Below, one piece after another: positions 6,581-63,559 of a DNA stretch of 64,000 nucleotides. Each line of letters begins with the position of its first letter. Position 1 is the first letter of the stretch. The notes under the pieces were generated by a model, which ran no database searches, was not told the DNA's origin, and saw only the letters and a program-made list of their open reading frames with translations. The DNA is from Tubiluchus corallicola. Its lineage: Eukaryota > Animalia > Priapulida. Position numbers and translations under genes: made by a program. The stretch lies in the NCBI GenBank assembly GCA_030141605.1, contig JAQGDQ010000206.1, positions 1-64,000 on the forward strand. The letters are read 5' to 3'.

Positions 6581-7282
6581 TTTATTATATTATAGCACAT
6601 AGTTTCAACTTTGTGAAAAATGTTTGGAATGGTTTTGTTGTAATGCTGTGCTGTTGATGCTTGTGCTATAGGTGTCGTCATCGTTGCCACCATCATCATC
6701 ATCATCATCAACATCATGATCACCACGTGAGGTGGTGGATTTGATGTGGTGTGGTGGTGGTGTGCTTTGTGTGTTGTGCTATGGATGGTGTGGTGGGGTG
6801 ATAGGGTGTGTGGGGTGTGGTGTGGAGTGGGTGGCGTGGTGTGTGGGTGGGTGGGTGTTGTGGTGCAGTGTGTTGTTATGGTGTGGTGCAGTGCGGTGTG
6901 ATGTGATGTGGTGGAGTATTATGGTGTGGGTGGTGTGGTGTGTGGGTGGGTGGTGCGATGTGGTGTGGTGCAGTGATATGGTGTGGTGCAGTGTGGTGTG
7001 ATGTGGTGGAGTCGTATGGTGTGGGTGGTGTGGTGTGGTGTGTGGGTGGTGCGGTGTGCTGCAGTGGTATGGTGTGGTGTGGTGTGATGTGGTGGAATGG
7101 TATGGTGTGGGTGGTGTGGTGTGGTGCAGTGTGGTGTGCGGTGTGATGTGATGTGGTGGAGTATTATGGTGTGGGTGGTGTGGTGTGCTGTGTGGGTGGT
7201 GCAGTGGTATGGTGTGGTGCAGTGTGGTGTGATATGGTGGAGTGGTATGGTGTGGGTGGTGTGGTGTGTAGGTGGTATGGTG
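6581..7282 (+). mobile_element. Helitron family B module, copy 3 (3' truncated)
   Basis: Same start as the other B copies; GT-rich body ends without hairpin or CTAG. Confidence 0.65.
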
Positions 7283-7533
7283 ACCTTTGTAGTTCCAAAC
7301 TTCCAGTATAAGTAGATCTTCCATTTCAGTATACAAAATATCACATTTTGAAATTCAAGCAAACACTGTCTTGAAGTAAAAGTATATAAAAGAGATGCTT
7401 GATTTTATGAACTAGTCAACTTACTCAAATATTTGATAGGCCAATAGTAGACTAATTTCAAATTTAGTGTTACATTAACAAATTTAATTCTTAAAATTTC
7501 AAATTTAATTGTTAAGCATCTCGATAAGCATGT

Positions 7534-8138
7534 TTGTACTGTATAACAATTTGTATTTTAACTGGTTAAGCAATATATTTAAAAATCACGTTGAAAACAC
7601 CAGTTCTTGTCTGATCACCGAAGTTAAGCAACGTAGAGCCTGGTTAGTACTTGGATGAGTGACTGCCTAGGAATACCAGGTGCTGTAGGCTTACGGGATG
7701 CCCACACTTTATCTCGACACTAGGCGGAGGAGCTGCACAAGCAGCCAGCGGCTAGAGGGCGGAGGAGGTCAAGTGACCCAACAGCCATGTGTAGAGGAGT
7801 AAACCTTCCAAATCAGGAGTGGAGCCCCGAAGGCGGACTAGTGCATCATGCCCACTGACTCCGGCAGCTAGCTCCTGCAGCCAACCTGGTGCCAAACGTA
7901 TCGCTCCACTTTCCTTTGAACTACACCAGCGAGGAAAAGAGGGGGTTCCTGTTGTCTGGGCAACTCAGGATCTCCATACACCTTGCCCAGGCGTGCGCCC
8001 TGGAGAGGCCACTCCAGTGGTTCAAGGATCGCACTGCTCAGCCACAGTCGACGCTGCAGCGCCATCAATGTGATCAATAACTGACTCTCTTGGCGCACAC
8101 TCCATTGTCTTCCGAGACAGAAGGATGCCAACAACAAT
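7534..8138 (+). mobile_element. 5S rRNA-derived SINE (SINE3-like), copy 1
   Basis: 7585-7692 is 5S rRNA-like (GATCACCGAAGTTAAGC..GGTTAGTACTTGGATG..GGAATACCAGGTGCTGTAGGCTT) lacking the first ~12 nt and the oligo-T terminator; followed by a ~440-bp body and (CAA)n-like tail; second copy at 44559-45147 (-). Confidence 0.8.
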
Positions 8139-27500: not shown

Positions 27501-30500
27501 GGGGGTCTCTTATACATGGGAGTAAGTCTTTTCAATAAGATGCATAAATTGTGACACTAATGATTTTAAAGAAATAAGTGCTCTACAACTGTTTTATTTC
27601 GAGTAATTATAGTTTCCTTTCAATAAATCTTCTCCATGGCTAAATTCTAATGATAAAATTAATGTACCGGGTAAGTTATTATTTTTTTAAATGTCTCTTT
27701 GGTATTGGAGAGAAATCGATTGTTCTGCAGCCAATCAACGCATCTGCATAAGCTGCATCTGCAGTTGATATTTTTGATGAGAGTGATGAGGAATTTAATG
27801 ATTTCTATGATGAATAAAGTTATTCATTTCCAAAAAACTTTTTTCCAGAATTTTTGCCTAAAAATTGAAGGGGTCTCTTATACACAAGGGTCTCTACATG
27901 GGAAAATACGGTAATAGACTCACTCTGGGTTGAATACATTTTGACCCAATTAACCGACCGAATCTATAGCCAGCAGGTATAATAACTGTAGTATTACTAC
28001 TATGGAAGTACGAGTCATCACCCATCGCCTTAGTGTGCACTACAAAGGCTTTAAATTAATTTAAAAAACAAACGAATGTCAAAATTCCCACATGCAATTA
28101 TTTTTTGAAAACTAATTTATACAAGTGAATTAATAAAAAACGAGAAAAAGTCGCACAAATCTTGATTATTACTTCTAGAAATTACAAAAAATCGTTCAAG
28201 GTCATTTGCTCCATTTCATGACGAAAAAGTTGGTTTGTGAAATTCTCGTACTGATAAAAACATTGACCATCTGTTGCTGTATGCTGTATATATTCATGCA
28301 AAACACCTGGTCACCTAGTGCTTGAGCTGCAGTTGGTAATGATGTAAATTTTCTTCTGATTCAGGTACACGAGTAGACGACGCTAAAGCGTTGATAGCTA
28401 CGAGCAACTTGCGCATACTCGCTTGCGACAACCTAGACGAAGCGGCTAAGATGGTGAGTTTGATTTGGAAGCTTTAATATGTTTAAAGTGACATCATGAT
28501 TGACAGTGAAACATTGAATTTACCAACCAGTTCATTGGTCGCAGCCGTGGTTAAATTGGCTAGCTAGGTCGAAATCTCAACACATTCGGTCACCTTTTAA
28601 CAAAAAGTATAAAGTACACTTTTAGTTGGTCAAATTGATTTACGTGAGTAACGTGCATCGAGAGAGGTGCTACAGATCTAAGTGCCAATCGTGTGCAGAG
28701 AGAGATCGCTAAGTTCTCGTAAAAAGTGGCCATCGTGTTTTAATACAAGTCTTATGGTATGTTGTGTGGCAAACAATGGGTGCCATGTTCTAATACAAGT
28801 TCTGTGGTATGTTGTGTGGCAAACAATGGCTGCCATGTTCTAATGCAAGTTCTATGGTATGTTGTGTGGCAAACAATGGGTACCCTTGTTCTAATACAAG
28901 TTCTATGGTATGTTGTGTGGCAAACAATGGGTGCACATTCTAATACAAGTTCTATGGTATGTTGTGTGGCAAATAATGGCTGGCATGTTCTAATACAAGT
29001 TCTATGGTATGTTGTGTAGCAAGCAATGGGTACCATGCTCTAATACAAGTCCTATGGTGGTATGTTGTGTGGCACACAATGGCTGCCATGTTCTAATACA
29101 AGTCCTATGGTATGTTGTGTGGCAAACAATGGCTGCCATGTTCTAATGCAAGTTCTATGGTATGTTGTGTGGCAAGCAATGGCTACCATGTTCTAATGCA
29201 AGTTCTATGGTATGTTGTGTGGCAAGCAATGGGTACCATGTTCTAATACAAGTTCTGTGGTATGTTGTGTGGCAAACAATGGCTGCCATGTTCTAATGCA
29301 AGTTCTATGGTATGTTGTGTGGCAAACAATGGGTACCCTTGTTCTAATACAAGTTCTATGGTATGTTGTGTGGCAAACAATGGGTGCACATTCTAATACA
29401 AGTTCTATGGTATGTTGTGTGGCAAATAATGGCTGGCATGTTCTAATACAAGTTCTATGGTATGTTGTGTAGCAAGCAATGGGTACCATGCTCTAATACA
29501 AGTCCTATGGTGGTATGTTGTGTGGCACACAATGGCTGCCATGTTCTAATACAAGTCCTATGGTATGTTGTGTGGCAAACAATGGCTGCCATGTTCTAAT
29601 GCAAGTTCTATGGTATGTTGTGTGGCAAGCAATGGCTACCATGTTCTAATGCAAGTTCTATGGTATGTTGTGTGGCAAGCAATGGCTACCATGTTCTAAT
29701 GCAAGTTCTATGGTATGTTGTGTGGCAAGCAATGGCTACCATGTTCTAATACAAATTCTATGGTATGTTGTGTGGCAAACAATGGCTGCCATGTTCTAAT
29801 GCAAGTTCTATGGTATGTTGTGTGGCAAGCAATGGCTACCATGTTCTAATGCAAGTTCTATGGTATGTTGTGTGGCAAGCAATGGCTACCATGTTCTAAT
29901 GCAAGTTCTATGGTATGTTGTGTGGCAAGCAATGGCTACCATGTTCTAATACAAGTTCTGTGGTATGTTGTGTGGCAAGCAATGGGTACCATGTTCTAAT
30001 ACAAGTTCTATGGTATGTTATGTGGCAAACAATGGGTGCACATTCTAATACAAGTCCTATGGTATGTTGTGTGGCAAACAATGGGTGCACATTCTAATAC
30101 AAGTCCTATGGTATGTTGTGTGGCAAACAATGGCTACCTTGCTCTAATAAAAATTCTATGATATCTTGTGTGGCAAATAATGGCTGGCATGTTCTAATAC
30201 AAGTTCTGTGGTATGTTGTGTGGCGAACAATGGCTCCTATTTTCTAAAACTGCATTTGATTGTCAGACAAAAACTGTTACAGCTCTGGAGTGGCACTTTT
30301 AAAGTATTATTTAATACTCAGGCTGGTAATCTCCCTCTGCACATGCACGGCTTCGAGAGGTTCATGGCACAGAAGTCTCATCACTAGGCCATGCATTCCC
30401 TAGCAGTCAAGACACTCCAAATTTCATTCCTTATAGCTGGCTCACCAAATTCAGCATTTCCAGTTTTGCTCGCTCCGATTTCAAATTAGATCAATTTGTT

Positions 30501-40672: not shown

Positions 40673-43600
40673 CTGAAACCAATAGTTACACTTGTTAACT
40701 GTACTTAACCTAGCCACTACTAGGGGGGGGGGCAAGCCAGCCCAACTCAGTGCCGGTCCCAAGCCTGGATAAATAAGGAGGGTTAGGGTCAGGAAGGGCA
40801 TCCGCCTGTAAAAACTGAGTCAAAACCTTCTATGAATGAGTCGGTGAGACTTAAAGGTAACGTCCACAAAGATAGTGGTCAGACCCGCTCTAATCTATGG
40901 GCTGGAAGCAGCTTCTCTAAAGAAGACCGAAGAGAAGAAAATGGGTGTGGTGGAGATGAGCATGTTGAGATGAATGGTGGGAATAACAAGAAGAGATAAA
41001 ATTAGAAATAATAATATCAGAGGAATAGTAAAAGTAGTGGAAGCCTCGCAAGATTGCGATGGTATGGACACCTGAAAAGAAGAGTCGGTGAAGATCATGT
41101 GGGAAGGGAAGACATAAATGAAGAGATGGTCAACAACAGGAATGCGTGGAGAAGACTCATTCACAACGGCGACCCCGCATAGGGAAAAGCTGGGAAAAAG
41201 AAGAAGACATTTGTTAACTGTACTTGATGCTGGTAGGTTTTTAAGTTGTAAATTTTCAACTCCCTCTATGCTGGATTATTAATTTTCAATGCTAATTCAT
41301 ATTAACAGGGATGAGAATGACAAATTGCAAAAAACTCTGAAACAGGCCGGGGGTTTTGGGGCCGCCTAGACCCCCAATGGGGTTGGGGGGCAAAGCCCCC
41401 CTAGGGGTTCAAAGCCCACTTGCAACCAGCAACAAATTGCAATTTTGTGACTTAAAATATCAATTACCTTGTTTCATGCATAATTTAAAATACCCAACTA
41501 TCAAGGATATATGATACCTAATTGTCTCAAAAACGCCCAAGTACTGGCCGCTCCTATGCAAAAGTATATAAAAACCGTCTGCAATTGACTCAAATAACTC
41601 CTCACAATTGATTCTCTATTTTTATACATAGAGATATACACGTTGTTACACTGATGTATGTGATGTATACAAAGTGGCGGGCCGCCAACTAGCGGTCAGC
41701 TTGCGAAATAATGTACTGGGTCCGTAAAAATTTACTCAACGAATTTACGCGTTTTACAAAAATGGCACTACTGGTCTTCCAAAAACTCGGAATTCCGCGT
41801 ATCTGCGGAAACTTCTCATCGCCGTATTAAAGGAGAACTGAACTCAGGGTTAAATGGTTAAATCATAGCTGACAGTGATCTATTGTATAAAATAATGAAA
41901 AGTAAAACATTGTTTTTTCAATAATGACTAGTATTGCCATTCATTAGTTAGAAGGCAACAGCAAATGCATTTCGAAAACGCGTTACGCAAAAAAGTAGAC
42001 AATGTAACTTTCAGTTCAGTTATAACGCGGCACACTGGCATCGCTAATAAACGGAAATTTTGCAGTCCGTTGCGGGTTGTCATCATCATCATCATACGCC
42101 CGTCACGTCTATTGTATACATTGGGCAGGCAGAATTCTAAAATAAAAGAAATCTGCCTTCAAACAGGTAAACGCAGCAGTAATCCAGCAAAAAAACTAGA
42201 CACTGCTACGCCAGTGGCTTGTCAGCACCACTTCCGTTTTCCCACGCAAATTGCTTGTTGATTGTTGGTGAAACGTGTTTAGTCACTTGTTCTGCATTCT
42301 TATAAAATGACTGCGTATTATGGATTAGTAATATGGACTTTTGTATAAATCGGCTTCTAAATACAAGTATGTTCTTATTTGTGTGGGTGTGCGCGTGCGT
42401 GCATGCAGGTGTGCACAGATGTGTGTGCATGTGTATAAATAAAACTAATATTCAATATTAGTGTTTAATAACAAATGGCTATTTGTTTATTTACAAGATT
42501 ATGTTTTAGTAACACACCACAAGAGGTTATAGTCAAATGTGTAAAAGCCAATGCGACCCTGTTAAAAAGCAACTACGTAGTGAAAGGGTTGAGCAGCATT
42601 GATTTTTGCTTCAGGGACATATCTCACTTGTTTTACGTTACTTTTTACGGAAGTCTTGGTTTCGTTTAACGACGTTGCGGGTTGCTTCCTTAGCGTAAAC
42701 ATTAGCAATATGCAGCACTCTTCGGTCATTAAAGTTTCTGTAATAGCAATATAGGGAGCGCATTTTTCTGTATTTTGTTAGGATTATTCGATGATTTTTC
42801 ATTGCGAAGAGTGTTGCATATTGCTAATGATTACAAAGAGGGAGCAACCTAGAATGAGCTGCCTATCAACTCACCATGCTAAGAGCATCGACAGCTCCAC
42901 CTACTGGCACTGCAGTGAAGTAATTGTTCTCCAACTGTGGCGCTGGGGGCGCTCTGTGTCCAATAAACTCCGGTGGCCCAGCAGTATCTGTACTAGCCAA
43001 CGTGTCGGCCGATTCTGTTGACATGGAGGACTGATAAGATGAGATTGGGTGGTCAACCGGACGCCCTAAATAATGCAAATAACGGCTGTGAATTATCTTA
43101 CAATTTAAGTAGAAATAAGAACTAAAGTATGAACAATAAAAGATTATTAAATCATATCAAACCATTAGTGATTTGGTATTAGAAAAATCTTACACTTAAC
43201 ATAGGACTCTATGTACACGTAATGCCTAATCCACGATAAGAAATGCGTGTATGCAACAGTTTGTATTGAAAAATGTGGAACTGTTTCCATGTTTACATAA
43301 TGTAGAAGCGTACAGCGCTACCACCACCGCCCCCCACCCCCCGCTTTCCCCTAGTTGTTATTGCATGCTTTGTTTCGCTAAGTCACTGCACGCCACCGCA
43401 GACGACAAAGTGGGAAATACTTATCTCTTGCCCGTTCTAAATCCGGAAGATTCCCGCGAGTCACACACCGCATGCAAAATGAGAGAAAGAAATGCAAGTT
43501 ACTCGAAAATCAATAATGTAACAACTAAAACAAAAAAGTTCCAAACATTAAGAGAGTGCAACAGAAGATGAAAAAAGTGAAAGAGAAGCTTGGTTTCGGG

Positions 43601-46600
43601 ATGTGGAAAATGATCATTAAGAACAGAGGCAAAGAGATATTCGAAAAGGCCAAGTGTTGCTCTTTCTACATGCCCATACATGGTAACAGCATGACTCCAT
43701 GTGTGTATAATGTATGGTGTGTGATCCATAATGCAAATAGAACAGTTTATATTTAAACATGTATAAGAGTTTCCATGTAGCTGTAATCCGTAATGGGTGA
43801 TCCGTATTCACTCGAAAGTGATCGCTATCATTCGAATATGCAACACGCAGCAATACGCGGACGGGAACGGCCACTGCGCCTAGGTGATTTGACGAGCTTT
43901 CAAATTTCCAGTGACGATTTTCACTGATTAGCTTCCTGGTCAGGTGAATTTTGGTCACTTCAGAACTTACACAAAATACTATTTCTTTCAGCATGTAATT
44001 ATAAGTTCGGTATCTAATCGCAGTTCCCTGGCCTCCTTCCCTAAGTGACACATATCATGTTGGTCTCTTCTCTCCCCTGCAAAATATTATGCCTGTGCTT
44101 TTTTTGATTTTGTCGTATATTAGTCTGCCGCAGTGTAATTTCGACATAAGCATGGTTCCAAAAAAATATTACTTCCAAATTTCCATGAACAAGCAACCAC
44201 AAATAGCGGAGCATTATGTACGCACTTTCGTTACGCGAATTATAAGTTTATGCTTCATTTATGCTAGAAAATGTTTACCACCATCTACAAAATAAGCCAA
44301 CAAGTTTTCAATTGCTAATAGCATATTCATATTCATATTCATATTCATATCATATTCATTAATGGTCTGGCTTTTCAGTTGCGCCCGAATTGTACTGCAT
44401 GTCTAAGATGAAAAAAAAATGGCGGAAAGAGCACCGTGAGTTTTGTTAATATGCATAGCGTTCACGGACACACGGAAACAATCAATGTTACGCATTACGC
44501 ACATATGGAGCCTTTTCAAAAAGCAAAATTTTACACTGTTAATAGTAAACTTAAATATGTTTGTTGGTTGGCATCCTTCTGTCTCGGAAGACAATGGAGT
44601 GTGCGCCAAGAGAGTCGGTTATTGATCACATTGATGAAGCTGCAGCGTCGAATGTGGCTGAGCAGTGCGATCCCTGAATGTCTCCTGGGCGCATGCCTGG
44701 GAAAGGTGTATGGAGATCTTGAGTTGCCCAGACAACAGGAACCCCTCTCTTCCTCCCTGGTGTGGTCCAAAGGAAAGCGGAGCGATACGTTTGGCACCAG
44801 GTCGGCTGCAGGAACTGCCGGAGTCAGTGAGCTTGCTGCACTGGTCCGCCTTCGGGGCTCCGCTCCTGATTTGGAAGGTTTACTCCTCTACACATGGCCG
44901 TTGGGTCACTTGACCTCCTCCGCCCTCTAGCCGTTGGCTGCTTGTGCAGCTCTTCCTCCCAGTGTTGAGATACAGTGTGGGCATCCCGCAGGCTTACAGT
45001 ACCTGGTATTCCTAGGCGGTCACCCATCCAAGTACTAACCAGGCTCTACGTTGCTTAACTTCAGTGATCAGACGAGAACCGGTGTTGTCAACGTGATTTT
45101 TAAATATATTGGTTAACTAGTTATAATACAAATTGTTAGAGTATAAAACTGTCACAATCTAGTACGTTCTAGTAATTATTACGCAAAGGTTCCGAGTTCA
45201 TATCCTAGCTCTGCCAATCATTAAGTACAAACTACCTGGTATTATTTGACACAATGATTTGTTCTACTCGAAGAAAACACAAGCATAAACAAAAATTACA
45301 GCGGTAGAGAGACAATCTTACTGTCAGCACTAATAACCAGTCAGCTTACCTGAGGTATAAAAAGTAGAGGATCCAATGGCACGAGCGTTTTGTAGCAAGG
45401 GCGTGGTCTCGCCCTCGCCCTCCCCTCCGCTGTCGCTGTCAGAATTGTCGGACTCCTCACCTGGAATTACCTGTCGTTTGCACACCGGGCACGTTTTCTT
45501 GTTATTGGTCAGCCACGGGTCAATGCACTTCACGTGATATGCTATAAGAATCAGCAATTAAAATTAAAATTATATTTTCAAGCAAAACTAGAAAGCAACA
45601 ATGAATTCAGATCCAAATCTGCAAGCATAATGCCGTGATTGTGTATATATGTGGTTATACCTGGTCGAGTGCGGTTAACTCACGTCAATACTTGCAGACT
45701 GCTATGCTCAAGCTTGCATGACACTCGCGACTAAGTTGAAATTTCGCCCAAAAAACACGCACAAACGAGTAATCATATGTTTAGTAATATTTAAGAAAAT
45801 TTCTTTGTTATCTAAACTTTGTAACAGTCGAAAAATCATACTACTACAAACAATTAAAACGATTTTATTACACAACATCCATAAAGGTTTAAAAGCAAAC
45901 GACGTACCGTGCGTGCACGGCAATATTCGCAGCTTTTCACCGTCGTCGTACTCGTCCAAACATATGGCACACATGTCATACTCGTCGCCCTTTTTAAATT
46001 TCTTTGTGGGGATCCGTTTCAAGTGTTGCACCGACAGGCGGGAGCGACGCTTGCGACGGTGATCACGCACGCACTTCGCCACCTGCAAATTAAATACGAA
46101 CCCGTAATATCAAGAACAACAGAAATATAAATGTAACAAACGTATTCAAAAACTGAAAGCAGTAAAAGATCTTCATATTAGATGTAATTTTTTACGAGTT
46201 CAAAATAATTTTTACTTATTAGTGGTGTCTATGTGAGTACAGTGTTCCCCCACTTATCGCGGGTGTTCCGTTCCAGGCCCACCCACGATAAGTGAATTTC
46301 CACGAAGTAGGGACACTATTCAGTCTCTAACGAAAATTTCACAAATAGCGTACACAAAACCGCAGATGAAAACTACGCACATGCGACAATCGGATGCTAA
46401 CGTGAAATGGAAGAGCTGAGAGGGGGGTAGCTGCGCACAGCGAAAGAAAGCAAATTACAATCTCACGTCGGCAAGTAGCATCTCAAGCGGGCGCAACTAC
46501 ATTTCGTTTTTCGTGTGTTTTCATCCGCCGAATAAATACACTATTTACTGTAAATGGTAATTTTTTATGATTTATAATATTCTTTCAATGTTAGAATTAA

Positions 46601-49183: not shown

Positions 49184-52100
49184 TGTTCCCTCACTTATCG
49201 CGGATGTTCCATTCCAGGCCCACCCGCGATAAGTGAATTTCCGCGAAGTAGGGACGCCATACTTATTTTAGTAGTTATACATTATTTTCAGTCTTTATAA
49301 ACCCTCCCCACACTCACACGTCGGCAAGTAGCATCTCAAGCGGGCGCAATTACATTTCGTTTTTGGTGTGTATTCATCCGCCGAATAAATACACTATTTA
49401 CTGTAAATGGTAATTTTTTATGATTTATAATATTCTTTCAATGTTAGAATTAATATTTTTTAATATATTTTATATATTTTGTGATTTTTTTATGCAAAAT
49501 TCATCAAATCCATACATTACTGTACAATACGTACTACGCATGTGCAAAAGTACTTTAGACGGAGTACTGCAAAAACCCGCGAAACGGCGAAAATAACGCG
49601 ATAAATATTTTACATTAATATTTTTGCCGCGAAACAGTGAGTTCACGATAAACGAACCGCGAAGTAGCGAGGGAACACTATATATATATATATATATATG
49701 TATGTATATATGTGTTTGTATATATACACATACAGGTTTCACATATGTAAACATTTAAACCAAGACGAAACCACATCTGCCATAGCCCAGCATCTACACA
49801 ACAATCAGCCATGTACAGATAATTACAATGATTCAACTTTCAAAATTATATACAAGTACAGATCAGATTTTCACTTTAAAATTTTGGAAGCAATAATCGT
49901 AAATTTTAAAGATCCGATTTCAGGTAGACAAATAGAACACGTTACTAACTTGTCTCTGTTTTAGTTACTGAATCTAGTACTAATTTTATTCAGTAACAAA
50001 CATGGCGGCTTTCAGCAGCAATTTTAGTTTTGCACTTTTACCTAATATTTTGATAAAATTGCAGAAGTAGACACTGAAGAGCTCCACTGAAAACTCTTAT
50101 CCAATTTAGTTACTGTATGACTGTATATACCTTTACACTGTGCAATAAGTGCTGAAACTATACCATCATGGTCTTAGTATTATTTAAAGCATATATGTTT
50201 CAAAGAGAAACGCAATGCAACTAAAACTGTACTGATCCTAAGATGGAAAGCCTAACTGGAGTTTAGTTACAAGCTTGAGATTCATTTGGTATCGAAAATA
50301 AAGAGTATAACGTGGATTTGGATTCGGTCCGGTTTCGGAAACCGTAAAATGTGAGATTTGGATTCAAATCGGTTTCGAAAATGAAGCAAAAATCATCTTC
50401 AAATTCGATTCAGTTTCGAAAATTTAAGCTTCGTGCCACCCCACCCACCCCAAACATTTCTCGTACCCCACTAGCTGACACAACCCTACAATACTTACGG
50501 TAACTTGTAACCTAGTTACAACACGTAAGGCCGGCCACAAAAAAAACTGTTTCGGTCTTGTCACATGAGTTCAAAAGATGTCAGTAGGAGGGAGGGAAGA
50601 AAAAACTTTTTGAAAAAACTTTTTAAAGCATTTGGAATGTTTAAAGCTGAATCGTGGAATATTTAAAATCAGTGGAAACCAAAGTTTGTTTATTTCCCAC
50701 TGGTTAGCAGTAATGTTTTATATTTTTCCGATGTACATTTGTCACGCTGCGTTTTTTAGTTTTTTTTGTTTCGCGTTACAAAATTATCGTATAATTATCG
50801 ATTATCGCATGGTCTCTTTTTTGTACGGTATGAACGTGTATTCTGATAATTATGGTACAAGCAACTGAACTACTCAGATGTTAAAAATGTTGATTTGGCA
50901 GAAAATACGATACTTTTCCACCGCCAATGGCATAATCAGCATCATACAGAACAGCAAGCCTAGCCGAGAGTTAGTCATAGAAAAACAAAGCTGCATTCTC
51001 ACTGAAACATCGACGTTATAATAATTGTTGAGTCTTACGCTTTAAATTTAAAAACACGCTCTTATATGGCTGCATCAGGTAAGTATATATGAACGTGCAA
51101 AAAAATTATCAAATTCCCAAACGAGTATGTGATAAAAAAATATTACTCGGACGATTAGACGGAAAGTATTTTTATAGTCGGCCTTTAACGAATCAAATCT
51201 AGCGACACACAACGACCCTGCCACCTTACCAACATTAAACCGAATGACTCACCATTCCTACGCCTAGTAAAAATATCCCCAGGGCGGAGACGGCGAGGGC
51301 TAGCAGGAAGGGCAACAGATAAGAGAGAACATCGAAATCATTCCAATGCCAACCAAGCTTAACATAGCACCTAGAAGTATGCAAACGCAATTACGACGTT
51401 AGTCCCCGGTTCAACTTACCATGAAGACGAGCATTATAACAAAGCAAATGCCAACGACAACGGCAAACGGTAGCAAGTAGCTATCGAAGTTGAGCGGCGG
51501 GTCGGGCGTCAGAGTCAGATAATACCTACAGCGAAAAGAAACACAGCTGTAAAGGAAAAGTGCGAAAAGATAAAGACTGAAAATTCATGCAATTCGTGAA
51601 CAATGCAAAAAGTTTTTGCAAGTGCAATAGTACCAGTGGCGGCCCATAGTTCAAATTAGCGGGGGTACTGCTTCAGAAAATTTGTACTAATTGTTTTAAT
51701 ACTGTGTAAAATGAAATAAACATATGTAATTTCAATGTTGTAATTTGTAATTGTAATTTTAAACAAGCAAACCTACAAAAGCTTATATATAAACTTGATA
51801 AAATTCTAAACAAAACAATTATTTTTTGCTTACTAATAGCCTACATTGTGGCAGTTCAAGCTTGACAACAAACTGTGTGAGTGACAGTACTTTCTCTACC
51901 TGGGCTCAGATATGTGCGCACGACAGCCAAACACCACATCGCTGGAGCGCACTGTGCTGGGCTACAAAGCAAACCATACTACCTTCACGTACTACGGTTC
52001 CGCACAGGTATAAAGAAAGAAATAAAGAAAAAAGACTTATTATACTGAATATTATCGATAATAGTTACTGAATGAAAGTAGGGTACGACGGAGTTCCACA

Positions 52101-55100
52101 GTACCTACACACGAGCCGCCACTGAATAGTACAGTCTTTTAAAGACACATGTATTATGACCAAAGGTGGCCACTTGTTATCAGCAGTTGTTATGGTAAAG
52201 CTGCTCCACTTTTAGCAAGCACAGTATGACAGTTTAAAGATGAAAAATGAACAATCAGTTAAAGGAAAACACAACGATTTTTCACACTCTACCGCATTTT
52301 GAAGTACGGTAACACCTATAATAATGCCAAAGCACTTTCGATGATTAACTAATTAATGGGTTAAAAACTTAATTAACGGCAGGCGAGCCCAACTAGTGAT
52401 GACATCACAAATGAACAACAGCACATTTTATGAGCCTGTTACACATGTTTGTGGAAATGAAAATTGAAGTACTACAGTGCAACATTCAGTATGATACCCA
52501 AACTCTGCAAATTTTCAAAGTTTAAAATTCAGACTTCAAGTTTATTGCTATGCTCACGCATGAACTCTTGAACAAGTGCACTACCTCAACACTGAACGTG
52601 TCTGAACTGAGAAGTAGAGCACCAGTTTTTTGTGCAATGCAATTCCATGATGCAGGTGCTAGTGACCGTCCAACTAGCAAATGATGAAATACAAGTAACA
52701 GCGAAGAACTGACAGCAAAAATACGTTTCTGTGGTAATAATTCCTTCACATAAGTCATTCTTGAAAAAATAGTGTTTCGTTTCAATACTTTATAGAGTTG
52801 ATTGTTTGGGCTACCGTTTAAGAATGGGTCTGGCTTTCCCTATAAGAGTCTAAGAATTTTCTAGATTTTGAAGCATATGTAGTGAAGTAAATACAGTCTA
52901 GTCTCGTTATCTCGCCAATGTCCGTCTAGGGCAAATTTTTGGCGAGAGGCGAGTATGGCGAGATAACGGGAATATAACGAAGTTAGTCTATATGTATATA
53001 CATAATACTGATTAACATAGTGTTCCTCTGTGTACATATAAAATATATTTCGCATTATGATACCAATCAACATTAAATCAGAAATGAAAAAATGTCATAA
53101 AAATAATCTTAGAATGTTACTTTTTTATTTAAAAAACCTTTTTCGAGTATACACTTAAATGCAATAAACTTAGCAAAAGATTGGTGTTATACACACCTAA
53201 ACGCAGCTTTGGTGTCATAGAGTAAGGATATCGGTGACGCTTTAGTTTCTCTGCGCATTAACTAACCACAGCACTCCTAATCTAATCCTGGTGAGACACA
53301 CACTAGATTAATTATGTCTGTCTATCGAGTACAGCAGCATTGTCTACATACCGCGGTTATATTGGTCGACACGCGGTATATGTATTGATCGATTCACCTC
53401 TGAGTTTGTCTGTTTGTCGACATAACGAACATAGTTTTACATAAGCACTCATCCTAGCATGACGTGGCGAGGGCGAGAAGCGAGGGTGGCGACTTAACGA
53501 GGTAAATATCAAAGCAGGAAATCCGTCCTGGTACTTTCTATGGCGAGAGACGAGTTTGGCGGCATAACGAGGGGCGAGATAACGAGGCTAGACTGTATAC
53601 AAGTTGTAACTCCCTTTGAAGTCAAAAGCATGAGCACCTGTTAGTATGAACATCAGCAATTCAGAACAATAAAAAGTTAGTCAAAGCAAAAGCCAAAGTT
53701 TCTCGAGAAGTTGAGCGTATTTTAATATTTGAGAAAAATGTTTGAAAGTTTCACTTCAAACTTGGCCCGCTCATTTTGAACGAAACATGGACTCGTCTGC
53801 AATACAAACACTTATCCTGCCAGGTGCTTGAGCAAACTCTTTCGCAGCTAAGTTACTATTATGAACTTCGGAAAATACGAAGCATTAAACAAGAGATTTT
53901 TTTCATCATAATACTATTTTTTGCTTTTTCATTTATCCTGTTGCGCACTATGTGATTAAAACCAGTTTCCGACAACAATAGAATAACCGTCAACTTGGCT
54001 ATTTAATGCCAATGAAGTAACAGAACAATTATTTTAACCCTCATAGGGTCACAATTTTTTACAACCAATTTTGGTAACCGGGGGGTAAAAATTACTCAGA
54101 AGGGGCCTGAATTAAAAGTTACGAAACTGGACAAAGTCTTACCGAGTCATATACTGATATTGCATCATCAACTGCAAGCCATCATTTAAACCTACGAATA
54201 CTGAGGGAATAGTTACATCCTGCGGATCTGCAAACATGAAAGTTATCATGAATTATACCATTAAACAATATTCTATGAACTATAAACTATGAATTTTATT
54301 TCACACATCAAAAAATACAATATCAAACACATTAATATACTTTAAATAAAATAATTTGAGTAGTGCGAGGTGAATGTACGACCATACGATCATTAACACA
54401 CTCACCTAACTTAAATGAAAAAATGATTATAGTTGTGCATACTTCTGTAGGTAACTTAATGTAAATAAGGATGAAGTAAATGATGTAATAATAGCAATGG
54501 TATAACAGCAAATGGTATCACAAAATTGAGTGAAATTTTTTTTAAATAATTACGAATATGAATTATGTGATTATCTGTCAATGTACCACTTACTTGTATT
54601 ACAATGCACCATATTGCTTACTTGTATATACAATGATATACATATACACATATATGTACCCAAATTTAAGTCGGGGGCGAAGAGATTAAATCAGAGGTGT
54701 GCAAATTATCTGAATTCCTGCGGGCCACAGGCAGTTTGATCAAGGAGCCAAGTACAGAAAGGCCTAATAACGATTTTTTTGCATCCGACCTGCGTACATC
54801 ATTACTACTACACTCAAGAAACTATTTTAGAAGTTATTAAAATTTATATTACAAACTATATATTTCTACTTTCACGATAGATAGTGGTAATTTCATTACA
54901 ATGCACATTAGTAATGTGTATCACACAGTCTGTGTAGTACAGTGACATTAAGCTACAACCGTCTTGTAAAGGTTAATGGCATCCGATCCGAGAAACTACC
55001 CACACTATCTTTGGGATCGTGGCACAGACTTCAGCTGGATATACTCAATTAATCGCCCGGGCCGCACTTTCATTAGGTTGACAAATCTCTTCGCGGGCCG

Positions 55101-58100
55101 CACAAATTCTCTCGGCGGGATTAAATTATACATTATACTTGTAGTAATAACTATCATTGTATAGAACATTTAAATATAATTGATGGTAGTAATGTAGCCA
55201 TCATAACATTCTAAAATACTTTTTCTAATAGTACCTATTTGCGGACAGTATTACAAAACAAAATATTACAATAAAAATGAAATTACAACAAAACTGTGAT
55301 ATGTAAATGATTAGTTTGATCAAACAGCTAACTTATGACTTACCATAAGAATACATTGGAATGAGTTCATTTGACTGGTCATTAAATACAATAGCAGCGT
55401 CATACCCCGCCCTCTGCGCAGCTATCACCTAAAGAGAAAAACAGAATTTCAAAAAAGAAATGTTATTAAAATCGAGAAATAAAACCTGAATATAGTACAC
55501 CGGTGACAAACGAAACAAAGTCAAACAAAACAGCTTTAGGAAGTCGTCGACTAACGACCACAGTCAGTCGGTTCACGCGGATTACCCCTACACGTAGGAC
55601 ATTGCGTGTAAATGCGCATTAAGTATGGTGCTGCATATGACGAATTTATTACAGTGTTCCCTCGCTACTTCGCGGTTCGTTTATCGCGGACTCGCTGTTT
55701 CGCTGCTTTTCAAAAATATTAATGTAAAGTATTTGTCGCGGTATTTTCGCTGTTTCGCAGGTTTTTGCGGTACTCCGTCTAAATTACTTTTGCGTAGCAC
55801 GTATCGCACAGTAATGTATAGATTTGATGAATTTTGCATAAAAAATCACAAAACGTATAAAAACATATTAAAAATATTAATTCTAACATTAAAACAATAT
55901 TATAAATCATAAAAAATTACCATTTACAGTAAATAGTGTATTTATTCGGCGGATGAATACACACCAAAAACAAAATGTAATACTTGCGTCCCTACTTTGC
56001 GGAAATTCACTTATCGCGGGTGGGCCTGGAACGGAACACCCACGATAAGTGAGGGAACACTGCATTATTATTATTTTATTTGTATGAAAAAATTTATACA
56101 GCAATGTAGTTTTAGTACAGATAATTATACAATAAAAAATAGTTTTTGTTAGTAATTAAAAAAGTTAAAGGATGATGAAATCCATACAGACGCATCGCCA
56201 TCATGTTACATGTAGTTGTTGACACATTCATAGAATGATTTTCTAACTTTCTTTTCACATTAAAATAAAAGCAAGGAGTACAATAATTCTTTATTCGTAA
56301 ATCAACATCTGAGTCATTCATGAAATACAACCTTTTTGGTATAATAAGTGTTGTGGAGATCGCTGGCATCTAGTAGAATTAAATAGAACATTGTAGAATG
56401 TTCCATTAGAATAATCGTCTTACCTTGTAGAATGTTCTAGAAGGAAACGTCTAGAATGTTCCCTGGCACGCTGTATAAGGCGAAGCAGGCCGCTGAGACA
56501 GACACACGCAGATTTCGCACGGACGTATACTTACACATTCTCTTGTATACTTGTATTTTCAGATACACTTAAACGTTTTCCAGATTTTCACGTTTACTGT
56601 AAACATTTCGCGTTCCTTCATACTTTTGTGTTGTAGAATTCTCGCTTAATAAACTAGTTTAATTTGACGAAGTGTTTTCTGGTTTTCTCTACGAGCCTTC
56701 CGAGAGAAACAAAACACAACAATAAGTGCTGCGGAATTTTAAAAATCTCAATTTACAACTGTTTATCAAAAAATTTGCTGGCAATAATACATAAGTAGTT
56801 TTACACCTTCGTTTTATTTATAATGTCAGTTATTTTACTCAGCTTACTTATTTATTAGAAAAGACAAAAGACTTAAAAGTTAATTGGCTTAAGAAATAGA
56901 AGGAAATATAGTTGGTTTTGTACAATTCATTAATTAAGTTGCGATCAGGTCGTAAAGTTGAACAGTCATAAGACGACAATTACCTATATATTAAACACGT
57001 ATTCTATATTGTGCAATCATTATGTGTCGGGTTTGCAACTTAATTATCTCACAAACATTATCTAAGGAAGCAAAGAATTAATAAATATATCTATAAATTA
57101 CTTACAACTTGCAACCAGCAACTTCATTGTCAGGAACGTTGCCGAAACGAAATTTTCTTTTCAGTTTGCACTTTCGGTTGTGGCGAAATTTTGGATAATT
57201 TTCGGTAACATTTTCAGAGGTTTTACTAGTATTTATCCAATTTACCTTTTCTTTTCTCCTAGATGTCAAAAACCTCTGAAAATCTTGGCTAAATTAGTTC
57301 AAATAAAGCGAAAACTTTGTTTACATAACAGTTTGTGACATGCATTTATCTTCAAGGCTTTTCTCTTTACCAATGAGGTGTACCTTCAGTGCTGACCTCT
57401 GTGAAGTTTTAGGGTCTCCAGGCCCAATCAACCGATTACCAATGTGGTGACCTTCAGTGCTGACCTCTGTGAAGCTTAGGGTCTCCAGGCCCAATCAAAC
57501 GATTACCAATGAGGTGTACCTTCAGTGCTGACCTCTGTGAAGTTTTAGGGTCTCCAGGCCCAATCAACCGATTACCAATGTGGTGACCTTCAGTGCTGAC
57601 CTCTGTGAAGCTTAGGGTCTCCAGGCCCAATCAAACGATTACCAATGTGGTGTACCTTCAGTGCTGACCTCTGTGAAGTTTAGGGTCTCCAGGCCCAATC
57701 AAACGATTACCAATGTGGTGTACCTTCAGTGCTGACCTCTGTGAAGTTTTAGGGTCTCCAGGTCCAATGAACCGATTACCAATGTGGTGTACCTTCAGTG
57801 CTGACCACTGTGAAGTTTTAGGGTCTCCAGGCCCAATCAACCGATTACCAATGTGGTGACCTTCAGTGCTGACCTCTGTGAAGTTTTAGGGTCTCCAGGC
57901 CCAATCAACCGATTACCAATGTGGTATACCTTCATTGCTGACCACTGCGAAGTTTTAGGGTCTCCAGGCCCAATCAACCGATTACCAAAGTGGTGTACCT
58001 TCAGTGCTGACCACTGTGAAGTTTTAGGGTCTCCAGGCCCAATCAACCGATTACCAATGTGGTATACCTTCATTGCTGACCACTGCGAAGTTTTAGGGTC

Positions 58101-61100
58101 TCCAGGCCCAATCAACCGATTACCAATGTGGTGTACCTTCAGTGCTGACCACTGTGAAGTTTTAGGGTCTCCAGGCCCAATCAACCGATTACCAATGTGG
58201 TGACCTTCAGTGCTGACCACTGCGAAGTTTTAGGGTCTCCAGGCCCAATCAACCGATTACCAATGTGGTGTACCTTCAGTGCTGACCACTGTGAAGTTTT
58301 AGGGTCTCCAGGCCCAATCAACCGATTACCAATGTGGTGTACCTTCAGTGCTGACCACTGTGAAGTTTTAGGGTCTCCAGGCCCAATCAACCGATTACCA
58401 ATGTGGTGACCTTCAGTGCTGACCTCTGTGAAGTTTTAGGGTCTCCAGGCCCAATCAACCGATTACCAATGTGGTGTACCTTCAGTGCTGACCACTGTGA
58501 AGTTTTAGGGTCTCCAGGCCCAATCAACCGATTACCAATGTGGTGTACCTTCAGTGCTGACCACTGTGAAGTTTTAGGGTCGCCAGGCCCAATCAAGCGA
58601 AATATCAAGCGTTTGAATTTACTTGAGCAAAATTACATTTAATTTTATAATTTATGAAATGTAGGCTACGAGATTTTTGCAAAACAAAACTTGTTTATTT
58701 TTAATGAAGCATTCTGATCATTAGACATTAATCATCAAGGATACTTCAATTCAAAAACATTATAACACATTTTCTAAGAGAAGCCACTCCGTCAAACTCA
58801 ATTAAAACTTCCCCGTCCTTTTTCTACTAGAAATTTTCATCGCAGCAAATAAACAAAAAACAAAATATTTACTTTTTTTAGAATTTTTTCATTTTTTCAG
58901 TTTTAGTAGTGGTTGGGTTTGCAAAAATGTTTCGATTTGTAAATTCGGTTTCGGTTACATCTCTGGTCATTGTTGCCGTTTTACTTAATTACACTTTGGT
59001 TAAATTATTATTTAAAGATAGTCACGTGTGTCTCTTCTTTCCCATTATTGAACATTATTTTTTTATAAACTAACACATTCGTATAACGTTCAATTTTCGT
59101 TCGTCTCAAATGCAAAATCTGATCATTTTTTATTACCCGATACATGCGCATTAACTAATTAATCATATTAGTAACAATCCTGAGAGGGTGGCTGACCTCG
59201 ATAACTTATAGTTCTTTCGCCTCCCTTTCACCACTAATCAATAATCACTTTTGCACTTCGTAATATTATTGTATGTTGTACGAGATTTATAAATCTGTTA
59301 GTTATGTATTTTGCTATTTTAAAAATGGTGATAAATTAATATACTTACTTACTGACTTACTTACTGACTGACTGACTTACTTACTTACTTACTTACTTAC
59401 TTTGGCTGAAACAATAGTGCTGTGTCTCTACAATCTACATCAAGGCCAATTAGTGCTCTTACATTGATAATTGCATACCTGTTACTAAAGATACACCAGC
59501 AGAATCAACATCAAGATTAGTGACTCCTAAATGAATTAGAAAATTTAAATTTACGCACCTTTTTATCGAAATCGCAGTTGCCTCGCCTTATGAGAGCCAC
59601 CCATGGCCTCGCAGCGGTGAAGTTTTTGGGCGGTGGGCTGACAGGGTCACAGGCATCTCTTGGAAATAAGTAAACTACATAACCCTGAAAATTACAGATT
59701 AATGTGATGATATACCATATATATATATATACCATACCATATATATATATATGGTATATCATCACATTAATATATATATATATACATATATATATATTAT
59801 ATATACTGGTTATTTATGGTAACAGCTATGTATATCATATTATACTCACGCATAAACATCATTTACATTCATAAATTCATATTTATAACAACAACAACAA
59901 AAGGTATTCAGTTAGTTACAAGGGTTAGTGACATTTGATATTGCAATGATGCCGAGTCTGTCGCCAGGGGCTCTGATTGGTCGATATTTCCTCATGTTTT
60001 AGGTGCCAAGTGGTGCGGGTTCAATGCCAGGATCATGATAAACTTTCTACATATGTGCTTTGCACGAAAACAAACAGGGATTTGTAGTAGAAGTAACTCG
60101 CCAGTAAACTTGTCCCGTATACTTCATGCTAGTTGTGCTTAACGAATAGGTGCTGGGATGACAAAAACACTTGTCAGTTTACCTACAGAACTAACGAGGC
60201 CATTCCATATCAGCAGTTTTATACCTAATGCGCTGTGCTAATATGCAATGGCTTCATAATAGATTGAACGATCACAATATGGGGGTTAGAGGTGAAAATA
60301 AATGACGTTTTGCCGTTGTAACAACATTAATACGTCGTGTAAAGCCGGGGATATGAAATTCACTGTGAGCAATCCAATCTAAATCACCGGAGACATATCA
60401 CAATATCACTATAACAATTACCAAGATTTTGGTTATTGCTCTTTGATTAAAATCCACCAAAAAATACTATTCGTATTTAACATTAGCAACGAAATTCTGG
60501 AGTTATTTACTGAGCTACGATATTTTTCAGGACTGCGCAAAGTTTTCATCAAAATTTTTATACTGCAGTGTAATTTAGCGAAGCACTATAAAACTGACAC
60601 TACAAAAAGGTACATAAGAATTTCAATGCAGGTTAAAAACCACAGTACCGATCAACGAGAGAGACCTGTCACTCACCGTCATGCCGTTGGTAGGTAGTTG
60701 AGGCCCAAACTGAGCCGGCAAATCTTTAAAGATCTCAACTGTCTCATTACTAGGTGTGTTCTAGAAAAAAAGAATGCACCAGCTTTATTAGAACTACATT
60801 TACTAGAATTAACAAAAATTCGAATATAAAAAAGTTAGTCCAGAATGCGAAGCATCAGATTACTCACTTATTGATTTTTTTCCACTTGATACGACTTTTA
60901 GAGCACCATTTAGTGTTACCACGGCATTATTAAGCACCATTAAAGGTTTTAAAATGTATACTTTCACCCGTACTAAGTGGGATAGGATGTGAAAAAACAT
61001 CCTGTTTTCCCATAAGTATCGGAAATTAAACTTTCCAGACATTAACTCCTTCCCGATGGGTACACATATTTACCCGTCATCTGTGATGGGCAAAAACAGA

Positions 61101-63388
61101 ACCTTATTAACCCTTTCAGTCCCAAATTATTTTTTAAAAAGAAAAATGTTTTTTGGCTTGGTACTTTTGTTCAGTATGTCCATCTTGTTTACACATAATT
61201 ATTTTTTTTCTACCCGTGCCCGCATGCTAAATATAGTCTGTGTCCCACGGGATACATTGGGATTCAATGGAAGCATAAAATGTGCTTCATTTTGGAACTG
61301 CTGATGATTTTTTAAAGTATTTAAGACATTTAGTATGCATGCTATGCTGATCTGTACAAAGTCGTCTCTAAAGTACTGTACCTTGCACAGTTTTTTATGC
61401 TATGTAGATTTTTTAGTTTGCCATTTTATCACCATTTTAGTCTATTGTTGTTGGCTTAAATCAAAATAACTATTACCAGATCAAATAACTGTCAGTTTTA
61501 CAATTTTATTAATTTTAAAGGCAGAAAATATTCTTGTATCCCACGGGATACAATGGGTATGAAAGGGTTAACTAAACTCATAATTCAACGAAATTTGGAA
61601 AAGAAACGACCAATATACAAGTAAATCATATAAGAACGAAATAAGTTCTACTGTTTAAACGCTTTCAGTACATGAACAAGCTTTTGCAGACCATTGGATA
61701 ACACTTTTGCATTGCACTTGTACTGGTCACCTGCAAGCCAAAGGTCACCTATTAGCTCAGGCTATTGTTAGCACGCTAAGGTAATTTTGCTGCACCTGGG
61801 CATGTATTCAGAGAAAGAAACAGCAGACAGCACAGAACACAACTGTAAGACTTTGTCATTTATTTGCGTAATGGCCACTCGGAAAGACTGAAACGCGAGC
61901 TCCCATATTTGGTACTCAAGAGAGTGAAATTATTTTGGACGATAATTCAACTGACTTGTACTGTACTTGGAAAATATAAAACCTGTTTTACTATAATTAG
62001 TATCGTGGCATTTATTAATGTTATGTTATAGCGTGAAATGAATTCACGCTATACGTTGAATGCTGTACGCTATACGCTGAATTACTTGAACTTTGCACCC
62101 ATCTATCCACTGATCAACCTCGCCATGGCTTAACTTCGCTTGTGAAACATGTATGATCATTCCCTCCCTAAATTTTGATTAACCTGTTAATTAATAATGT
62201 TATAAATATCATTTTACACATTTTATGGTAAACCGATCTTTGTGTTAAACATTTTTGTGTCATTTTTCTTTAATTTTTGCTAATTAAGACTCTTCCTACT
62301 TGACACTACATTTTTTTGTTTAAAGGACAAGTAAACGATTTTTGGCACACATTAGTTATTTGTTATGTTTAACCATGCTTTTATTATGATATTTTAGGAG
62401 TTAAGACATTGTGCATGCAGCAGCTGGCTAGTTGCAGTTAAACTTCACCTTTCTATCAACTTCATGCCATCTAATAATTAATTAAAGGAAAAATCAACAC
62501 TTGAACAACATTCATTGTATTTTGTGAATACATTCTTCTTTTAAATTTGTAATGATTTCTCAGTTTGACAGACAAGCAGTTGCAGTTGCTGGTCAGATTA
62601 GGACAATAACCCATTAGATGCGTGTAGCGTAGTCATTTCTGTACTTTCCACTTGGTAGCACTAAGTATGCTGTCAGGTTTTGCATTTCAACCAGTACAAA
62701 TTTATCGCAAGTAAACAAATTCAGTACTTGACTAAACCAGCAGGTAAATAAATGTGCACTATATGTGGGGATGGTGGCTGTAACTTCAACAGCGCACAGG
62801 CCCAGCGTTTTAATCAGCTGCAACCAGCACAGGGCAGACCCACGTGCAGGGGTTACGTTCCTGTACAAGTTTCATAACACCTTAGTGCGTTTGAACGGCT
62901 ATCAAATGTACATGCTTGGAATGACTTCAATACTTTTTGCAAAATCTTATGCAGAAAAAAATGCTCTGCAGTTTCTGTTAAACAGTTCTAAACATAAGTT
63001 AACACTTGGAAACTAGAAGGTTTTGAAATGAAAATTTTGTGAGTAATTAACAGGATGATATGAAAGTATGCAACTTTTCATATCATCCTGTCAATTACTC
63101 CACCAAAAAAAAATTAAGCATTTTATTTACAGTGCTAGAAAGGAAATTTAATTCTCTTTCAGAAAATATATAATTCTGTACTAGTATCTCACGCAATTAG
63201 GCCTTTATGGGCATTTTTGTAAGGGGACGTCAATACTACACAAATATTCGTCGCCGTGAAAGAGTTAATGTAAAAAACAACAAAAATTTCTTTACCACGA
63301 TTACGTCAGCATCGACGAGGGTGACGTGGAATAATGCCACGAGGTTGACAACAGTAAATATATACAGCACTGTAATGTGGCATGGCAT
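40529..63388 (-). CDS. RNF13: PA-TM-RING E3 ubiquitin ligase, RNF13/RNF167 (Godzilla/Goliath) family; 426 aa (TM exon A) or 430 aa (TM exon B)
   Basis: Exons 63296-63388, 60677-60760, 59559-59684, 55344-55428, 54143-54227, [51420-51525 or 51253-51370], 45908-46082, 45350-45541, 42875-43065, 40529-40672; all GT-AG and phase-compatible. Signal peptide, PA domain (DLPAQFG, DAC, LIRRGNCDFDKKV, AQRAGYDAAIVFN, IPSVFVG), TM helix, RING-H2 (CAIC..[16 protein letters not shown]..CPVC). Confidence 0.92.
40707..41206 (+). mobile_element. Internally deleted RTE-clade LINE derivative
   Basis: 5'-UTR-like GTCAGGAAGGGCATCC..TAAAA; degenerate YGLE..EMSMLR*MVGITRRDKIRN; (GAA)n tail; ~19-bp TSD ACA(C/T)TTGTTAACTGTACTT. 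Confidence 0.8.
42875..43065 (-). CDS. RNF13: RNF13 exon, low-complexity C-terminal tail
   Basis: tttag acceptor, gtgagt donor, phase 1 to 0, GC-richer open frame. Confidence 0.75.
44559..45147 (-). mobile_element. 5S rRNA-derived SINE, copy 2
   Basis: Reverse-complement homolog of 7534-8138; 5S part at about 44990-45097. Confidence 0.8.
45350..45541 (-). CDS. RNF13: RNF13 exon, RING C-half, acidic Ser-rich region and ETTPLL dileucine motif
   Basis: [21 protein letters not shown]; tag acceptor, gtaagc donor. Confidence 0.94.
45908..46082 (-). CDS. RNF13: RNF13 exon, basic juxtamembrane region plus RING N-half
   Basis: VAKCVRDHRRKRRSRL..CAICLDEY..LRILPCTH; ttgcag acceptor, gtacgt donor. Confidence 0.94.
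46240..46831 (+). mobile_element. Tigger/pogo-like MITE family 1
   Basis: TA-flanked CAGTGTTCCC TIRs. Confidence 0.85.
47672..48011. mobile_element. Tigger-like MITE family 2 nested in a dispersed repeat (47457-48220)
   Basis: TA TSD; empty site visible at about 14882. Confidence 0.88.
49181..49680 (+). mobile_element. Tigger/pogo-like MITE family 1 flanked by (TA)n
   Basis: TIRs flanked by TA runs on both sides. Confidence 0.85.
49740..49964 (+). mobile_element. Penelope-like element fragment (GIY-YIG C-terminal region)
   Basis: SAIAQHL..C..F.II.....FKILEA.I..DP...Q..LSLF pattern. Confidence 0.55.
51253..51370 (-). CDS. RNF13: RNF13 alternative transmembrane exon B (CYVKLGWHWNDFDVLSYLLPFLLALAVSALGIFLLGVGM)
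   Basis: 118 nt, same phases as exon A; ttctag acceptor, gtgagt donor; open frame; shares SYLLPF and terminal ATG|gt with exon A. Confidence 0.8.
51420..51525 (-). CDS. RNF13: RNF13 transmembrane exon A (YYLTLTPDPPLNFDSYLLPFAVVVGICFVIMLVFM)
   Basis: 106 nt, phase 2 to 0; tag acceptor, gtaagt donor; canonical YLxPF..VGIC TM segment. Confidence 0.92.
51634..52124. mobile_element. hAT MITE
   Basis: TIR CAGTGGCGGC / GCCGCCACTG; perfect TSD AATAGTAC. Confidence 0.9.
52894..53595. mobile_element. Tigger-like MITE family 3
   Basis: TA|CAGTCTAGTCTCGTTATCTCGCC ... GGCGAGATAACGAGGCTAGACTG|TA. Confidence 0.88.
54143..54227 (-). CDS. RNF13: RNF13 exon (PQDVTIPSVFVGLNDGLQLMMQYQYMT)
   Basis: ttgcag acceptor, gtaaga donor; IPSVF motif. 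Confidence 0.9.
54692..55118 (+). mobile_element. hAT (Charlie-like) MITE lacking the right TIR
   Basis: Same family as 9714 and 39155; TSD GATTAAAT on both sides. Confidence 0.8.
55344..55428 (-). CDS. RNF13: RNF13 exon, PA domain (VIAAQRAGYDAAIVFNDQSNELIPMYSY)
   Basis: ctttag acceptor, gtaagt donor. Confidence 0.92.
55652..56062 (-). mobile_element. Tigger/pogo-like MITE family 1
   Basis: Inverted copy with CAGTGTTCCCTC TIRs. Confidence 0.85.
56349..56721 (+). mobile_element. Solo LTR (373 bp)
   Basis: TGTTGTG...CACAACA termini; 5-bp TSD ATAAG; TATAA at 56474; AATAAA at 56648. Confidence 0.85.
56429..56443 (+). promoter_or_regulatory. Heat-shock element (nGAAnnTTCnnGAAn) in the solo LTR
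   Basis: AGAATGTTCTAGAAG is a perfect 3-unit HSE; further GAATGTTC two-unit sites at about 56396 and 56454, just upstream of TATAA. Confidence 0.55.
57368..58595. repeat. 67-69-bp minisatellite (~18 copies)
   Basis: Unit CCAATGTGGTGTACCTTCAGTGCTGACCACTGTGAAGTTTTAGGGTCTCCAGGCCCAATCAACCGATTA. Confidence 0.96.
59559..59684 (-). CDS. RNF13: RNF13 exon, PA domain (GYVVYLFPRDACDPV...LIRRGNCDFDKK)
   Basis: ttttcag acceptor, gtgcgt donor. Confidence 0.92.
60677..60760 (-). CDS. RNF13: RNF13 exon (NTPSNETVEIFKDLPAQFGPQLPTNGMT)
   Basis: ttttctag acceptor, gtgagt donor. Confidence 0.88.
61111..61567. mobile_element. piggyBac-like MITE
   Basis: TTAA|CCCTTTCAGTCCCA ... TGGGTATGAAAGGG|TTAA. Confidence 0.8.
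63296..63388 (-). CDS. RNF13: RNF13 exon 1, signal peptide (MPCHITVLYIFTVVNLVALFHVTLVDADVIV)
   Basis: ATG, hydrophobic core, VDA-D cleavage-like site, gtaaag donor, phase 0 matches the next exon. Confidence 0.8.
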
Positions 63389-63559
63389 TCTCTGATAGGG
63401 AAACATGTTTTCCCCGGCTAGTCACCTAGCTGCGCGTTACGTCCTGCAACGTGTCACATTTCACTGACTGAAAAATATTAAAATACGGATATATTAGGCC
63501 TAGATTTTAAGATACAAGATCTATGTGCTGATTGGTACTAATCAGCAGTAAGTAATAAT

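Follow-up and report, generated by a model that had tools for sequence, protein, structure and literature searches.

Examination of a 64,000-nt stretch of Tubiluchus corallicola DNA (the window) revealed, on the minus strand, a gene whose coding exons run from 63406 down to 40529 when mapped against the RNF13-like protein of Priapulus caudatus (Table 1). Judged by its encoded protein, the gene is a PA-TM-RING ligase of the RNF13/RNF167 type, for which E3 activity and an endosomal/lysosomal location are predicted only. The exon map recovered the order signal peptide, PA domain, single transmembrane (TM) helix, and RING-H2. The named database matches were RNF13 or RNF167, the others being hypothetical proteins, and the best overall protein match was P. 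caudatus RNF13-like (65% identical overall). Pfam assigned PA and RING to both Priapulus isoforms, RING to window exon 7, and a weak PA match to exon 3, and the modelled Priapulus RING matches that of human RNF13 (5zbu) with 68% identity. RNF13, RNF167, and Drosophila Godzilla likewise combine a signal peptide, a PA fold, one TM helix, RING-H2, and an acidic di-leucine motif; the motif in exon 8 was typed by the di-leucine motif described for RNF13 (PMC8834447).

Table 1. Coding exons and splicing elements of the RNF13/RNF167-type gene in the window.
Feature	Position	Strand	Basis
Coding exon 1, signal peptide	63296..63406	-	86% identity with P. caudatus residues 1-37
Coding exon 2, start of PA fold	60677..60760	-	P. 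caudatus alignment
Coding exon 3, PA domain	59559..59684	-	P. caudatus alignment and Pfam
Coding exon 4, PA domain; one version in the window, two in mollusc models	55344..55428	-	
Coding exon 5, upstream exon shared by both isoforms, left in phase 2	54143..54227	-	P. caudatus alignment
Exon 6A, 35 aa, presumed ancestral type; predicted last strand of the PA fold, stalk, and TM helix	51420..51525	-	
Intron between 6A and 6B, 49 nt	51371..51419	-	
Predicted branch site GACTAAC, branch A at 51399	51398..51404	-	Sequence only
Exon 6B, 39 aa, diverged copy; stalk with Trp, TM helix longer by three residues, small-residue face	51253..51370	-	
Coding exon 7, basic juxtamembrane segment; RING-H2, first half	45908..46082	-	P. 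caudatus alignment, Pfam
Coding exon 8, RING-H2, second half; acidic ETTPLL motif of di-leucine type	45350..45541	-	
Coding exon 9, Ser/Thr-rich tail	42875..43065	-	P. caudatus alignment
Last coding exon, up to the stop codon	40529..40672	-	P. caudatus alignment

Several other elements accompany the gene. The intron after exon 3 holds a 69-bp tandem repeat (57367-58600; 18 copies, 95% matches), and Rfam identified two dispersed 5S rRNA-like copies, one at 7573-7691 on the plus strand and the other in an intron of the RNF13 gene. A succinyl-CoA ligase beta-type gene has exons at about 23869-27554 on the plus strand (Pfam Ligase_CoA in two of three pieces). Judged by the open reading frames and tblastn output, positions 1-7400 and 28750-30100 are repetitive, with a recurring unit that carries CAC-rich low-complexity tracts and, in addition, a short-period tandem array.

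The original prediction placed two alternative TM exons side by side in this gene, and mapping bore out their anatomy. Exons 6A (106 nt) and 6B (118 nt; hereafter A and B) are both open, of 3n+1 length, entered in phase 2, and left in phase 0, and the junctions proposed for them at 54143 and 46082 coincide with the exon map. Their splice sites are good, with acceptors ctgtag (A) and ttctag (B) and donors ATG|gtaagt (A) and ATG|gtgagt (B), and the two share 11 identities, SYLLPF among them, which marks them as tandem homologous exons in the same phase. The 49-nt GT-AG intron between them contains GACTAAC at nt 16-22, placing the predicted branch A at nt 21 from the A donor and 28 nt from the intron 3′ end. 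The other nine introns of the gene span 366-5170 nt; among all ten, CTAAC occurs near the 3′ end in this one alone. When both strands of the 64 kb were scanned for splice-flanked open 3n+1 exons of 91-136 nt, only four candidates appeared, namely A, a version of A whose acceptor lies 21 nt further upstream, B, and a single piece that is not hydrophobic. Since three of these four are A or B, the pair is more than a chance occurrence. A third copy of the TM exon was not found within the window.

The frame behaves as had been anticipated. Inclusion of A alone gives 432 aa and of B alone 436 aa, each with the full PA-TM-RING plan and the natural stop. Inclusion of both ends the frame at 202 aa, 664 nt ahead of the last junction, and omission of both ends it at 184 aa, 494 nt ahead of that junction. 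Two further sites lie next to the pair. An in-frame second acceptor 21 nt upstream of A (51526-51546, minus strand) would add seven residues that are absent from both Priapulus models. A strong donor-like G|GTAAGG at 51229 (minus strand), 23 nt past the B donor in a GU-rich stretch, would lead to an in-frame stop if used, and it may be a decoy or a regulatory site.

Comparison with P. caudatus disclosed that exon B is neither missing nor disrupted in this relative. Two isoforms of its RNF13-like protein, X2 (XP_014663643.1, A type) and X1 (XP_014663642.1, B type), are identical outside the swapped segment. Exon A matches the X2 segment at 30 of 35 residues (86%) and exon B matches the intact X1 segment at 21 of 39 (54%), so that exon B is, at the level of protein comparison, conserved in this related species, although it is less conserved than A and evolves faster. 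Exon B was matched by tblastn from X1 only (E 1e-8), and in a tree the window and Priapulus B segments group at 100/95. Their BLOSUM score was 105, the next best among 39 segments compared being 39. The Priapulus isoforms, like those of the echinoderms discussed below, are computed RefSeq models and were compared as proteins; alternative RefSeq models usually rest on transcript alignments. One contig spanning both exons, from a DNA run (run X1), differed at two positions in B and one in A, all of them synonymous, which for B is a weak test (p about 0.06, about a quarter of changes in B being synonymous). Splice junctions were seen in no RNA read or contig; run X2, which is guessed to be RNA, reached intronic repeats only and neither of the two exons, and carries no information on expression.

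Taken together, A and B are diverged tandem anchor exons that are probably spliced one or the other, yielding two full-length ligases that would differ in their membrane partners or substrates. This reading builds on the anatomy, the frame logic, and the conserved counterparts, and we infer that exclusivity is achieved by a steric block combined with nonsense-mediated decay (NMD). Joining of A to B would be prevented by the 49-nt intron because its 21 nt from donor to branch A fall far below the approximately 50 nt needed in human extracts, where distances of 35-46 nt abolished splicing (PMC6692369). Both PMC5740500 and PMC7969005 define mutually exclusive exons by the same limit of about 50 nt; the predicted branch A in the window lies within it, though the criterion is mammalian and may not suit this lineage. 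The proposed proximity of donor and branch was correct as a distance, but the branch keeps the usual spacing from the acceptor (28 nt) and comes near the donor only through the shortness of the intron. Transcripts with A and B together, or with neither, would meet an early stop and be removed by NMD, so the frameshift would back up the steric block. Exon A would be the ancestral default and B the regulated alternative.

Two other explanations compete with this one. Exon B could be an unused or decaying duplicate in this species, and its faster evolution would fit that idea, as would a direct search in which the query was exon B together with five residues encoded by the intron and 0 of 246 candidates scored. 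This search missed the Priapulus isoform too, however, which leaves the blank uninformative. Against decay stand the open frame, good splice sites, and best branch motif of the gene, the differences in run X1, all of them synonymous, and the intact counterpart in a species whose protein is only 65% identical overall. We regard decay as very improbable. A stronger competitor, still unlikely in our view, holds that exclusivity comes mainly from NMD and regulatory proteins, with the 49-nt intron spliceable and the steric block incidental. The A-B intron does have a canonical donor, branch, and acceptor, and with both exons of 3n+1 length the A+B product would be truncated after 202 aa. C. elegans introns are spliced down to about 40 nt, a length also given there as the steric limit, and 14 C. 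elegans clusters lean at least partly on NMD (PMC4165533). Human introns of 43 and 49 nt are spliced as well (PMC4463651), and such short spliced introns in both species count against a steric block. On the other side, 21 nt from donor to branch is far less than the 35-46 nt at which splicing was abolished (PMC6692369), and the other introns of the gene, at 366-5170 nt, do not suggest a genome adapted to introns this short. We retain one-or-other splicing enforced by steric block and NMD as the preferred reading.

An RNA structure was also considered and found no support. A duplex between exon A and the GU-rich stretch past the B donor reached -30 kcal/mol, the best of seven pairs, but failed its controls: dinucleotide shuffling equalled it in 15 of 300 and in 1 of 100 sequences, synonymous recoding did so in 19 of 300, and among 90 pairs two control exons gave better values. 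The local RNA fold around the exons gave a z of -0.8.

Neither mutually exclusive TM exons nor steric exclusivity is new. Alpha-tropomyosin's mutually exclusive splicing is said to operate through donor-branch proximity, and Yue et al. (2013) reportedly named steric hindrance in a title on Dscam1 exons 17.1/17.2. Like A and B, these Drosophila exons form an exclusive pair for the TM and juxtamembrane segments of a type I membrane protein; Dscam1, however, is an adhesion receptor with a 252-bp intervening intron for which RNA structure is invoked (PMC7685093), whereas the window encodes an enzyme and the intron has 49 nt. A donor-to-branch distance of less than about 50 nt is likewise found in the steric cases alpha-tropomyosin, OGDH 4a/4b, and C. 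elegans egl-15 and let-2. In OGDH the branch points are distant and lie 25-41 nt from the donor (PMC7969005), in contrast to the branch 28 nt from the acceptor here. The present case lies nearer to the short-intron clusters of C. elegans, with introns below 40 nt and exons of 3n length (PMC4165533), whereas here the 3n+1 exons cause a frameshift.

To describe what the exchange changes in the protein, we turned to the Priapulus isoforms. AlphaFold models of both place a beta-strand at residues 166-170/171, and the swapped exon starts at 165. The model of the B isoform aligned with the GRAIL PA structure 3icu over residues 31-177 (Z 16.4, rmsd 3.0, 140 aligned), and the Pfam PA profile ends ahead of this strand. 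The swapped exon is accordingly predicted by the models to supply the last PA beta-strand together with the stalk and the helix. The expectation that the PA and RING domains would be kept needs a corresponding amendment: both isoforms share the PA core, RING, and tail, which would be left as they are, but the last PA strand is predicted to change along with the stalk and helix.

The composition of B was likewise anticipated in part. Its Trp recurs in Priapulus B, but the first Cys and the His that B had been said to add are not conserved, and B is without the intramembrane Cys found in the A helix and in nearly all other helices. B has 6-7 Gly/Ala/Ser against two in A; in both species an Ala-Ser-Gly-Gly series occupies positions i, i+4, i+7, and i+14 of the B helix and likely forms a packing face. 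From the PF motif to the exon end there are 20 residues in both priapulid B exons, three more than in A, compared with 17 in all other motif-bearing segments (36 of 38).

Altered choice of an intramembrane partner or substrate is our first guess for the function of the exchange, plausible but tentative. It draws on the Ala-Ser-Gly-Gly face shared by the B helices of both species, and on the fact that both isoforms largely share the di-leucine motif and the PA domain, which are reported to determine how RNF13 is sorted (PMC8834447). It also draws on an engineered TM swap between RNF43 and ZNRF3, which redirected the down-regulation of FZD5 with localisation unchanged; the same work found the down-regulation of FZD6 unaffected, which counts against this guess (PMC11231576). 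That swap, too, exchanged the TM segment of a PA-TM-RING ligase and shifted substrate preference, but it was made in the laboratory between paralogues, whereas here it would be a natural splice switch inside one gene.

Altered sorting ranks behind partner or substrate choice, as a possibility we consider rather doubtful. Under the same exclusive splicing, the longer B helix and its new stalk would direct the protein to another membrane or compartment, like TM1/TM2 of Dscam1. TM length steers sorting, and the 20 residues that follow the PF motif in priapulid B, as opposed to 17 elsewhere, would suit this role. Dscam 17.1/17.2 encode alternative TM and juxtamembrane domains (PMC7685093), which also speaks for it. 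The di-leucine motif and the PA core are nevertheless present in both isoforms, the RNF43/ZNRF3 swap left localisation as it was (PMC11231576), and the alternative helices of echinoderms keep the 17-residue length and mostly add Ser/Thr. Altered cleavage or stability comes after sorting and appears improbable. Partner or substrate choice remains the function we would place first.

The echinoderm segments were found through cluster look-ups and pairwise comparison. Eight species from four classes have two to three alternative segments with the same boundaries. S. purpuratus, L. variegatus, L. pictus, and D. antillarum have three types apiece; Amphiura, Acanthaster, Asterias, and the crinoid Anneissia have two. 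The second Asterias type comes from an unnamed protein with identical flanks, the Patiria cluster is left out of the count, and D. setosum has one sequence only. One L. pictus type had no match in other species, so the genus may have four types. Tandem presence of two segments in one protein was seen in none of these echinoderm and Priapulus models. In the tree, 10 of 11 echinoderm alternatives group together at 88/87. AU tests on 35 columns rejected neither a grouping of priapulid B with the echinoderm alternatives (p 0.32) nor one of priapulid A with B (p 0.19). Because B and the echinoderm alternatives give poor BLOSUM scores (6-24) and differ in length, we lean towards separate duplications in the two lineages.

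Outside these groups, no TM swap was found among the cluster members of Branchiostoma (8), Glandiceps (2), Liolophura (3), Haliotis (2 and 6), Pomacea (4), Limulus (2), and Artemia (3), absence from models being weak evidence. Unlike the gene in the window, the 173 proteins with the vertebrate-style RNF13/RNF167 pattern (two evidently non-vertebrate), surveyed as cluster representatives only, showed no second alternative TM segment; four of them are without the usual TM segment. A metagenome scan returned 80 loci, none of them close to the window, with best values of 38-64% on segments. Among 17 contigs scanned with a TM-exon profile, one match was present in 14, none in three, and two in none; this profile included Priapulus B, and its match to window B (E 5e-4) is not independent.

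In the literature covered, with most subscription papers and bioRxiv supplements outside its scope, alternative TM exons were not found for RNF13 or any PA-TM-RING ligase, and neither RNF13 nor RNF167 occurs in a human mutually-exclusive-exon catalogue (text and ten supplements). The Priapulus and echinoderm isoforms already stand in RefSeq, unremarked; a mention elsewhere is possible.

A TM swap has apparently been built by evolution into one gene in two distant phyla, with the rest held constant. Substrate choice by PA-TM-RING ligases is partly open, and the TM helix is implicated by one exchange made in the laboratory (RNF43/ZNRF3). A broader and speculative proposal is that invertebrate RNF13 uses splice-encoded anchors as substrate selectors, two in priapulids and up to three or four in sea urchins, in place before crinoids parted from the other echinoderms, with molluscs varying the PA exon instead. 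Their origin could even go back to the bilaterian ancestor, since the tree test does not reject a single origin. If true, splicing would do what vertebrates did by duplicating RNF13/RNF167, and the isoforms would offer a natural test of how E3 ligases recognise substrates within the membrane. Embryos of sea urchins and starfish are tractable, and the role of the helix in choosing substrate or location could be tested there.

Variation at the PA exon was seen in the models of Pomacea, Liolophura, and Haliotis, each with two forms of the PA segment that corresponds to exon 4 of the window (P0290/P0416, P0142/P0258, and P0145/P0266). These versions likely represent a second, independent mutually exclusive pair in the gene family, as judged from protein models. 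One RNF13 protein, P0292, has two such PA segments in tandem; in the window, exon 4 is single. Odd TM segments were noted in RNF13 proteins of a millipede and a tick, in two unnamed arthropod-like proteins, and in four gastropod-like ones (P0297, P0288, P0321, P0303, P0274, P0292, P0309, and P0328). Six of these eight were looked up and all proved to be single-member clusters; their TM segments may be alternative exons or divergent single exons.
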